Below the pieces are notes generated by a model, which did no database searches, was not told the DNA's origin, and saw only the letters and a list, made by a program, of their open reading frames with translations. From a virus (lineage: Duplodnaviria; Heunggongvirae; Uroviricota; Caudoviricetes), in the IMG/VR virus record IMGVR_UViG_2706794664_000005: a stretch of DNA of 4,319 nt; one strand, 5' to 3'. Positions 3,071 to 4,131 of the stretch are shown here, one piece after another (position 1 is the stretch's first letter; each line of letters opens with the position of its first letter). A program made the translations under genes and the position numbers.

Positions 3071-3235
3071 ATGAAATCTAATGAACGTACTTTCAATAGT
3101 ACCAGTACTAACCCATTCAGTATTAGCGGAAAAGAAACAATTGGAATGAAGAAAAGGATTTACAGGAGTAAGAGCTATGGCACAGGGATTACAATGTTGG
3201 AATGCAGCGGGTGTATTAGTAGTAGATCTGACTGA
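3071..3235 (+). CDS. Questionable small ORF (54 aa, basic, low complexity) in the gap between the J-like gene and the next gene
   Basis: ATG at 3071 is preceded by AAGGA (3059..3063) with a 7-nt spacer; the frame runs to TGA at 3233..3235 and overlaps the start of the 3177 gene by 59 nt in another frame. Translation: MKSNERTFNSTSTNPFSISGKETIGMKKRIYRSKSYGTGITMLECSGCISSRSD. No recognisable motif; the long overlap argues against it. Confidence 0.12.
   Translation: MKSNERTFNSTSTNPFSISGKETIGMKKRIYRSKSYGTGITMLECSGCISSRSD
3164..3168 (+). promoter_or_regulatory. Shine-Dalgarno sequence (AGGAG) for the 3177 gene
   Basis: AGGAG at 3164..3168, 8-nt spacer, ATG at 3177. An in-frame TGA at 3147..3149 means 3177 is the first possible start. 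Confidence 0.6.
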
Positions 3236-3473
3236 TTATAACATACGTTTTATGGGTACTTATACTGTCAAGGCTACTTCTGCACAGACCTATACTGTAT
3301 CAGTACCAAATATGAAAACTACAGGCTGGTTTGTACACTATGCCCCCGCCAGTGATACCTTTAATGAGTGGTCAGCCTTTTGTAATAATGGGTCATTTAC
3401 TGCGGTTTATTTGCCAACATATGCACCGTTAGCTGGTAACTACACTTTTAACGTATATAAGTGGACGGCGTAA
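3177..3473 (+). CDS. Hypothetical phage protein (98 aa), probable tail-associated; paralog of the N-terminal half of the downstream 218-aa protein
   Basis: ATG start with a good SD; ends TAA at 3471..3473. It aligns with the next protein over its length: MAQGLQCWNAAGVLVVDLT vs MAGFEVYNSAGALTIDST, then NIRFMGTYTVKA vs KSIMTGAVKA, TTGWFV vs TTQYWFQ, and AFCNNGSF vs AWCFPGAY. Aromatic/Gly/Thr-rich composition suggests a beta-rich fold; no N-terminal signal peptide is apparent. Confidence 0.75.
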   Translation: MAQGLQCWNAAGVLVVDLTDYNIRFMGTYTVKATSAQTYTVSVPNMKTTGWFVHYAPASDTFNEWSAFCNNGSFTAVYLPTYAPLAGNYTFNVYKWTA

Positions 3474-3474
3474 G

Positions 3475-4131
3475 ATGGCAGGTTTCGAGGTATATAATTC
3501 AGCGGGTGCACTGACTATAGATAGTACTAACAAGTCGATAATGACGGGTGCAGTAAAGGCCATGGGAAATCTAACTGATACGGGATACTACACAGGCTTT
3601 ACCTGTGCCTTCGGTAATGGTGGATCGCTCGGTTTCGTTATGCCATCAGTAGTAGCTAACAGGAACACAACACAGTACTGGTTCCAGATACAGAAAGACG
3701 GGGCATGGTGTTTCCCTGGTGCCTATATGTTCCAGCCTGGCATGGGCAGGTTCATGACAAGTAGTCACACGGCTACCCCCACATCTGGTTTTCTTGATGT
3801 GTTCAGTGAAGAAGGTACTTTAATCTGGTCTGCTGCATCAGCGGCAACAATGCCACGTATCAGGGGATTTTTGACAGCACCTGCGGCTACCGATCTCAGT
3901 ACTGCCATTACGGTAACGTCTCCAGTAGCTGATCCCTGGTTCTGCTGGTCACAATGTCCGGGGAACATATCAGATGATGGTACAGTAATTGGGTACTCTG
4001 GTCTGGTTATCAGGCGTAATTCCAGTACTTCATTCAGTCTACAGTACGTTTCAAAGAACCAGAAAACCTACCGCCAGGCAATGGGGAATAATGGTATCCA
4101 GATAGCATTGGCGACATTTACAGGGTATTAA
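3475..4131 (+). CDS. Hypothetical phage protein (218 aa), probable tail-associated; P98-like N-terminal domain plus C-terminal extension
   Basis: ATG at 3475 lies 1 nt after the upstream stop (TAAGATG), indicating translational coupling; ends TAA at 4129..4131. The N-terminal ~100 aa are homologous to the 98-aa protein. The C-terminal half (from about aa 104, SGFLDVFSEEGTLIWS...PWFCWSQCPG) may be a further degenerate copy of the same module. Contains several Cys and Trp residues. Confidence 0.8.
   Translation: MAGFEVYNSAGALTIDSTNKSIMTGAVKAMGNLTDTGYYTGFTCAFGNGGSLGFVMPSVVANRNTTQYWFQIQKDGAWCFPGAYMFQPGMGRFMTSSHTATPTSGFLDVFSEEGTLIWSAASAATMPRIRGFLTAPAATDLSTAITVTSPVADPWFCWSQCPGNISDDGTVIGYSGLVIRRNSSTSFSLQYVSKNQKTYRQAMGNNGIQIALATFTGY

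Follow-up and report, generated by a model that had tools for sequence, protein, structure and literature searches.

A two-gene cassette next to a J-like tail fibre gene in a degraded Shigella sonnei prophage probably encodes a receptor-binding complex of the tail tip

The variable locus next to gpJ has been linked to host recognition by Maffei et al., who matched its allelic variants to the terminal receptor, with IsaakIselin (Bas10) and IME347 using YncD (PMC8594841). The YncD dependence of Bas10 and Bas11 was confirmed by random-barcode transposon sequencing (RB-TnSeq), the structure of the locus led to a prediction of YncD for LMessi and Eeyore, two temperate phages, and the C-terminal tip of GpJ was associated with specificity (bioRxiv 10.64898/2026.04.02.716166). 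In the case of IME347, adsorption assays together with knockout and complementation document the need for YncD, and infection does not require TonB (PMC6499177). A YncD-associated 'bona fide RBP locus' (RBP, receptor-binding protein) has thereby already been described (PMC8594841; bioRxiv 10.64898/2026.04.02.716166). In Pseudomonas phage DEV, the genes for gp56, gp55 and gp54 share an operon in which stop and start codons overlap, and each of them is essential; suppressors restoring growth on an lptD mutant fall in gp54, which maps receptor recognition to this protein, and AlphaFold3 models the gp56 trimer with a single copy each of gp55 and gp54 at its tip (interface predicted template modelling score, ipTM, 0.8). 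The LIT1 orthologues are virion proteins, and the authors regard gp55 as the adaptor and gp54 as the RBP of a module suggested to spread horizontally (PMC12892993). Here, we analysed a 4,319-bp stretch of Caudoviricetes DNA (IMG/VR record IMGVR_UViG_2706794664_000005; hereafter the window), in which two small genes, open reading frame (ORF)-A and ORF-B, follow a J-like gene, and we document the gene order and family membership of this pair, the motif shared by its two proteins, the co-variation of the J tip with them and an apparent similarity of the ORF-B fold to a solved RBP.

Most likely, ORF-A and ORF-B belong to a receptor-binding complex at the tip of a siphophage tail, as its two subunits that are attached non-covalently. 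By analogy with DEV gp56/gp55/gp54 and with the RBP loci of Drexlerviridae, which suggest the 3:1:1 assembly, the adaptor and RBP roles and the receptor, both genes would be transcribed together with the tail operon, and a single copy each of ORF-A and ORF-B would dock on the beta-helical tip at the C-terminus of the J-like fibre trimer through the beta-hairpins conserved at their N-termini (x-G-h-x-h-aromatic-N/D-x-x-G-x-h-x-h-D). ORF-A (98 aa, one beta-sandwich) would serve as an adaptor or stabiliser, while variable loops of ORF-B (218 aa, DUF8377, two hairpin-led modules) would bind an outer-membrane protein and thus bring about irreversible adsorption; on the grounds of family membership, the receptor would most likely be YncD, a transporter of the TonB-dependent type, or an outer-membrane protein related to it. 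The features involved are the following:

78..3019, + strand: J-like central tail fibre/tail tip protein without about its first 120 codons (Pfam, PHROG and PDB sequence matches)
2897..3016, + strand: J tip (C-terminal ~40 aa), where ORF-A and ORF-B are proposed to dock (tip comparison)
3164..3168, + strand: Shine-Dalgarno AGGAG of ORF-A, read from the sequence, 8 nt before the ATG at 3177
3177..3473, + strand: ORF-A, 98 aa, small all-beta sandwich, proposed adaptor between J tip and RBP
3475..4131, + strand: ORF-B, 218 aa, Pfam DUF8377, proposed receptor-binding protein

An initial annotation of this DNA had described two tightly spaced, translationally coupled genes on the + strand downstream of a J-like gene, and the two ORFs are indeed found at 3177-3473 and 3475-4131 with the sizes given there. 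The ORF-A stop codon (3471-3473) is followed after 1 nt by the ORF-B start codon at 3475 (TAAgATG), a junction compatible with coupling, and translational coupling of ORF-B to ORF-A is probable. From J to the end of ORF-B, neither a promoter-like nor a terminator-like site was predicted. The J-like identity of the upstream gene is likewise secure, given its matches to Pfam Phage_Tail_Tip (E 5.5e-20) and PHROG 31 'central tail fiber J' (E 2.8e-61), in addition to Phage-tail_3 and fn3. Among PDB sequences, it matches DEV gp56 (9ze4_N), the F2-pyocin fibre and a 1172-aa 'putative tail fiber protein' (9l9p_S), whose length equals that of T1 gp33.

The same annotation considered that the pair might represent an undescribed family, which is not the case. 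ORF-B belongs to PHROG 4524 (E 1.6e-54) and to Pfam DUF8377 (PF28254), with a precomputed match recorded on the exact protein and on all 77 homologues, ORF-A belongs to PHROG 7961, and the type of locus is published (PMC8594841; bioRxiv 10.64898/2026.04.02.716166). The Pfam-A copy that we used for hmmscan did not include the PF28254 model, and scanning the pair with it returned only sub-threshold DUF1541/DUF1513 noise; NCBIfam and PADLOC gave no match to the pair, and a PDB sequence search with both family profiles gave no real match. An exhaustive HMMER search collected 165 ORF-A family representatives at 50% identity, nearly all of them stand-alone proteins of 90-105 aa. In every record inspected, an ORF-A homologue lies immediately upstream of an ORF-B homologue, beside a J-like gene. 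The pair is co-directional with J and overlaps it in the lambdoid phage HK639, where the homologues are gp24 and gp25, is convergent with J and accompanied by a third gene, for a signal-peptide protein, in Drexlerviridae (e.g. IsaakIselin/Bas10, with bas10_0026 and bas10_0025 as the homologues), and is also present in many Klebsiella, Cronobacter and Enterobacter phages and, with adjacent locus tags, in enterobacterial prophages. For XC38, an N4-like Acinetobacter phage, hhalign probabilities reach 96.6% for ORF-A and 99% for ORF-B. The pair is, in short, a recognised module type seen in T1-like, lambdoid and N4-like phages.

Two side observations concern the ORF-A family. Its profile picks antibody heavy-chain variable (VH) chains in the PDB at E ~0.002 (QGLEWMG…/…RFxGRVTI region), a similarity that we set aside as probably spurious, being due to chance or to a generic beta-sandwich likeness. 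Moreover, some homologues (XC38 gp35, 134 aa, L018:2593-2997; proteins P0285 and P0286) are annotated with a hydrophobic N-terminal extension of ~27-33 residues, which reflects either a wrongly placed start that overlaps the gene upstream or a genuine variant anchored in the membrane.

The J tip co-varies with the ORF-A/B pair. Its last ~40 aa are common to the window, HK639, Bas10 and XC38, very different phages that all carry ORF-A and ORF-B homologues, whereas a different tip sequence is found in eight phages with a single-chain Rtp44-type RBP. The window tip also aligns to the C-terminus of DEV gp56 (PDB 9ZE4 chain N), to within 4 residues of the end (phmmer E 3e-11). The same kind of C-terminal tip closes a 322-aa 'putative tail tip fiber protein' in the PDB (7z4b_EA), which ends in …YDGSGALRIRIGSW. 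The T1 cryo-electron microscopy (cryo-EM) paper offers no docking information, as the C-terminus of J is unresolved there.

AlphaFold2 produced confident all-beta models of both proteins, with pLDDT (predicted local distance difference test) values of 89 for ORF-B and 90 for ORF-A. The sole clear PDB structural neighbour of ORF-B is a phage RBP solved on its receptor, whose fold ORF-B may share, and ORF-A is closer in fold to fibre and tailspike domains than to known chaperones. In BFVD, Foldseek matched ORF-B to phage proteins of ~220 aa, including those of XC38 (E 3.3e-8) and Schitoviridae phCDa (E 1.7e-5). Another match, named 'bulb-type lectin domain containing protein' (E 3.8e-5), raises the question of whether ORF-B is instead a lectin-like glycan binder, of the bulb-type lectin or beta-prism-like kind, directed at the lipopolysaccharide (LPS) core or another surface sugar. 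The description of LptD-binding RBPs as lectin-like sandwiches would agree with this, as would the hairpin motif, which presumably resembles the lectin 'LVLYd…iWaS' repeat. However, this protein name is the sole link, no Pfam B_lectin match was obtained at E <= 1, relatives with the locus lose infectivity on yncD mutants, and in the closest solved structure the contacts are with protein loops of LptD, all of which makes sugar binding an improbable alternative to binding of an outer-membrane protein by ORF-B.

Both proteins open with the same short motif, and a similar hairpin is predicted in the middle of ORF-B:

3183..3230, + strand: ORF-A N-terminal hairpin motif QGLQCWNAAGVLVVDL, where conservation in the family peaks, with predicted strands at residues 5-8 and 14-18; it aligns to the ORF-B N-terminus
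3478..3525, + strand: ORF-B hairpin motif 1 AGFEVYNSAGALTIDS, with invariant G3, F4 and N8, low column entropy and predicted strands at residues 5-7 and 13-16
3784..3834, + strand: ORF-B hairpin motif 2 SGFLDVFSEEGTLIWSA, start of the second module, with invariant S104, G105, W118 and A120

That the N-terminal motif of about 18 residues is shared by ORF-A and ORF-B beyond chance, as the initial annotation had recognised, is borne out by comparing the two families with hhalign, which aligns only the first 17-19 residues (residues 1-19 with a probability of 82.6% and E 9.6e-6; 91% and E 1.1e-6 with a 237-sequence ORF-A profile; 74% with larger alignments). The further shared blocks listed there obtained no significant score, and the paralogy of the two proteins stands for this motif but is not shown by sequence over the full length (BLASTP of ORF-A against ORF-B, not significant at E 5.4). 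A regular expression for the motif written by hand had zero matches and was dropped. As for a third, degenerate copy within ORF-B, the picture is mixed: aligning the halves of ORF-B against each other with hhalign gave no significant result, and aa 104-120 (SGFLDVFSEEGTLIWSA) match motif 1 only weakly (hhalign probability 8-34%), yet this stretch and the N-terminal motif are the most conserved of the ORF-B family, motif 2 has low column entropy and predicted strands at 108-110 and 116-119, and in the AlphaFold2 model both stretches are beta-hairpins, each opening a run of strands. The hairpins are the best conserved parts and the loops less so, which suits a conserved docking end combined with a variable receptor end; in ORF-B, variable stretches fall at aa 21-30, 51-60 and 141-150. 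A tail-tip accessory or receptor-binding role with a conserved N-terminus docking on a common virion partner, which the initial annotation had suggested, is supported by gpJ synteny, J-tip co-variation, the PDB neighbour of ORF-B and the DEV analogue.

A different fate was considered for genes in this position, which in other phages is occupied by lom or cor. Under this alternative, the pair would be a lysogenic-conversion or superinfection-exclusion cassette (a lom/cor-like moron), expressed by the prophage and acting outside the virion. Both ORFs remain intact in a degraded prophage whose flanking genes are disrupted by insertion sequences (IS), and the Rtp44 family is classed as 'moron' by PHROG, although this label is contradicted by the cryo-EM structure of an Rtp44 homologue bound to LptD. 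The lack of an obvious signal peptide in either protein, mentioned in the initial annotation, was confirmed and extends to lipobox and transmembrane segments, with no hydrophobic leader in the N-termini MAQGLQCWNAAG and MAGFEVYNSAG; moron matches were absent from Pfam, NCBIfam and PADLOC, and no promoter-like site precedes the pair. Furthermore, the pair is kept in strictly virulent Drexlerviridae and Schitoviridae, and in relatives exclusion is the task of a separate gene for a signal-peptide protein or lipoprotein (Bas10 gene 24, T1 Cor, Rtp45). In light of the absent export signals and the presence in virulent phages, we regard a moron cassette as very hard to credit, and we retain a probable virion role at the tail tip for both proteins.

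Regarding the receptor, the locus is best compared with that of the YncD-type phages Bas10, Bas11, IME347, LMessi and Eeyore. Like the window, all of these have homologues of both ORFs, in the same order, beside a J-like gene with the same type of tip, with identities to the window proteins of 36-42% over the full length for ORF-B and 30-42% for ORF-A. In tblastn, ORF-B is 35.6% identical to its homologue in Bas10, 36.5% in Bas11 and 37.0% in IME347, at 100% coverage in each case. By virtue of this full-length identity ORF-B falls within the family as it is delimited in the preprint (bioRxiv 10.64898/2026.04.02.716166), and the pair occupies the variable locus adjoining the gpJ homologue, arranged as in HK639 and Bas10, which is the layout of a YncD-type locus. 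In contrast to the Drexlerviridae locus, convergent with J and supplied with a third, signal-peptide gene that probably serves exclusion, the locus is co-directional with J in both the window and HK639, and the gene that comes after the pair in the window is a spanin-like lysis gene. By analogy, YncD itself may be the receptor of the window pair, for which we see a chance just under even.

Several points weigh against the proposed complex or parts of it. The pair is known here from sequence and predicted models, and it is by analogy with DEV that ORF-B rather than ORF-A would touch the receptor. Identity to the YncD-validated homologues is only 36-37%, and since homologues occur in Klebsiella, Enterobacter, Cronobacter and Acinetobacter phages, the receptor may differ. 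The pair does come after J, but not directly as first annotated: a 157-nt spacer parts J from ORF-A, whereas J and the small genes overlap in HK639 and XC38. With J disrupted in the window strain, ORF-A and ORF-B are currently unable to serve a virion. The likeness to DEV gp55 and gp54 is confined to the hairpin, the only part aligned by hhalign, at probabilities of no more than 36% (36% for ORF-A versus the gp55-like protein and 3% for ORF-B versus the gp54-like protein). A hairpin-only hidden Markov model (HMM) was run on the six-frame ORFs of 13 loci, 95,000 aa in all, and was significant for close homologues only; it was marginal for the gp55-like protein of MAG4 (E 0.095) and gave no significant match to T1 or Rtp44. 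Finally, the detection of gp55 in DEV virions by mass spectrometry was uncertain (PMC12892993).

This last point also speaks for a related alternative, in which ORF-B is the RBP while ORF-A is a non-virion assembly chaperone of the lambda Tfa/T4 gp38 type that folds or loads ORF-B and then leaves. The small size of ORF-A, its position immediately upstream of ORF-B and the probable translational coupling would suit such a protein. Against it, the LIT1 gp55 orthologues are reported to be structural and gp55 is part of the tip complex in the AlphaFold3 prediction (ipTM 0.8); besides, ORF-A has the docking hairpin of ORF-B and a fold like that of fibre and tailspike domains. Taken together, these data make a chaperone unlikely and favour ORF-A as a subunit that stays with ORF-B on the J tip.

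The window itself is a piece of a degraded S. sonnei prophage: the 4.1 kb between its IS ends are 97-99.9% identical to the prophage adjoining mipA/gapA in S. sonnei genomes, and a protein named from S. sonnei matches ORF-A at 100% identity. Its two ends are formed by insertion sequences:

1..77, unstranded: IS911 end (100% match to the IS911 ends annotated in phages Sf6 and SfII)
4243..4319, unstranded: IS2 end (100% match to annotated IS2 ends)

In the S. sonnei loci without IS911 at this site, to which the window aligns from position 78 onwards, the J-like gene encodes 1100 aa; IS911 thus takes away about its first 120 codons, and the gene 3′ of ORF-B is cut by IS2. Because IS911 truncates J and IS2 truncates the downstream gene, the ORF-A/ORF-B module is a relic in the window genome. 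Megablast against phages matched the IS ends only and found no similar phage genome, and against complete Escherichia coli genomes its sole match was a 15% fragment of J with 75% identity. G+C content is uneven, being ~32-35% at the J tip and spacer (2850-3300 region) versus 48-50% within ORF-B (3450-4050 region) and swinging further inside J, which fits a mosaic origin. In other S. sonnei strains, IS copies sit elsewhere in the same prophage. In the prophage copies next to mipA (L003-L008), most tail genes are without a Pfam match, and a Peptidase_S74 fibre and a GIY-YIG homing-endonuclease-like gene are present. The spacer between J and ORF-A holds a mechanical 54-aa ORF (3071-3235, + strand) that overlaps the ORF-A start and is annotated as a gene in some S. 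sonnei genomes; it is probably spurious.

Downstream of ORF-B, two further features precede the IS2 end:

4133..4184, unstranded: (ACAATA)n, a tandemly repeated hexanucleotide that separates ORF-B from the next gene (Tandem Repeats Finder, TRF, 8.7 copies)
4200..4242, + strand: initial 14 codons of the gene for a 90-aa coiled-coil protein with a membrane anchor, a candidate Rz-like i-spanin, cut by IS2 (full protein from L003:10720-10992)

Across six S. sonnei loci (L003-L008, ~10660-10720), the longest perfect ACAATA run comprises 2-10 copies, and the start of the next gene moves by multiples of 6 among S. sonnei genomes; as it varies among these genomes, the repeat behaves as a variable number tandem repeat (VNTR). 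A minus-strand ORF of 53 aa (4118-4279) is a CYCYCY… read-out of the hexamer and is probably spurious. The 90-aa protein combines a transmembrane helix at its N-terminus with a long coiled coil, matches PHROG 739, Rz-like spanin (E 2.7e-5), and weakly DUF2730; its gene is followed by a lysozyme gene on the opposite strand and a GIY-YIG (SegE-like) gene. The segment 4200-4242 (…LVISGC) was also considered as the start of a Cor/Llp-like lipoprotein and rejected: the sequence is lipobox-like only, and the full 90-aa protein, with its transmembrane helix and coiled coil, matches Rz-like spanins.

What the window preserves, then, is an ordinary type of host-recognition module in a dead prophage. 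The pair ties Pfam DUF8377 and the ~100-aa PHROG 7961 to a likely function, as RBP and adaptor on the J tip. The occurrence of the same cassette with a matching J tip in lambdoid, T1-like and N4-like phages supports the swapping of receptor specificity at the level of the cassette, and with it the prediction of receptors from genomes.

Other known systems can be set beside the window pair at greater distance, and the literature treats the FhuA, YncD, DEV LptD and Rtp44 RBP loci as unrelated families. In the FhuA-type locus of T1 (gp32/gp31; N15 gp22/gp23), genes for 101 and 229 aa directly follow J in T1; gp32 (MAYGISTWDANG…) carries the motif at its N-terminus and gp31 at ~aa 111, with hhalign probabilities of 80-84% on the hairpins. 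The likeness to the window pair is confined to these hairpins, the T1 receptor is FhuA, and Cor follows gp31. The labels 'outer membrane protein' and 'membrane associated protein' attached to T1 gp32/gp31 (L019:10608-11602) are misleading. The LptD-binding RBP of Rtp44/Oekolampad (PHROG 1265; PDB 9RPT) differs from the window pair in being a single chain and in its J tip, its receptor and its lipoprotein exclusion partner; the pair has no PHROG 1265 match, and neither family profile aligns significantly with the Rtp44 family profile of 8 sequences (hhalign <10%). Rtp44 too is labelled 'membrane protein' (L009:26752-27687), and the filing of PHROG 1265 under 'moron, auxiliary metabolic gene and host takeover' is misleading, the Oekolampad homologue being a cryo-EM-proven RBP. 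Distant Rtp44 homologues (22-25% identity) occur in phages of ~75-77 kb (ES17, SkaterBoy_Bas90, phiEc_1 and 172-1).

Nonetheless, with 311 aa Rtp44 comes near the 98 + 218 aa of the window pair and has three conserved hairpin-like segments (~aa 3, 115 and 209), and the metagenomic protein P0284 (313 aa) consists of an ORF-A-like first module and two further hairpins. We tentatively propose, while considering it somewhat more apt to fail than to hold, that the FhuA (T1 gp32/gp31), YncD (window pair), DEV LptD (gp55/gp54) and single-chain Rtp44 types are one architecture, in which three hairpin-led beta-sandwich modules form a pseudo-trimeric cap with a single asymmetric receptor-binding face on the three-fold J tip. 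The modules may be split 1+2, into adaptor and RBP, or fused in one chain of ~311 aa, and their hairpins would continue similar hairpin repeats at the C-terminus of J. Given the outcome of the hairpin-only HMM, this generalisation rests on architecture and not on sequence statistics; if true, it explains how a trimeric fibre comes to have a monomeric receptor-binding surface and unifies RBP families that are counted as unrelated.

Counterparts outside the siphophages are XC38 and DEV. In XC38 (Schitoviridae, Exceevirus; gp34-gp35-gp36), the larger protein also has 218 aa and the upstream tail protein ends like the window J; this system is known from its genes alone, its upstream protein is a podovirus tail protein of ~2480 aa, and the similarity of the larger protein spans only the first ~135 residues. 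DEV (PDB 9ZE4) is likewise a podovirus (Schitoviridae), with the fibre beside the tail plug and LptD as receptor. Its near-identical relative, Litunavirus MAG4, whose fibre C-terminus (125-aa query) is identical to that of DEV gp56, encodes proteins of 429, 99 and 223 aa in this order; the 99-aa protein, which begins with MSYGFRFYDANGNVTVDSTNKS, carries the hairpin motif at its N-terminus, and the 223-aa protein carries it there and again at aa 114. DEV and the window thus share a J-like trimeric fibre with a homologous C-terminal tip followed by two abutting small genes, of ~99 and ~223 aa in DEV, and the order of fibre, 98-aa and 218-aa proteins with a 1-nt gap in the window matches a DEV-type operon, with a 157-nt spacer after J in addition.

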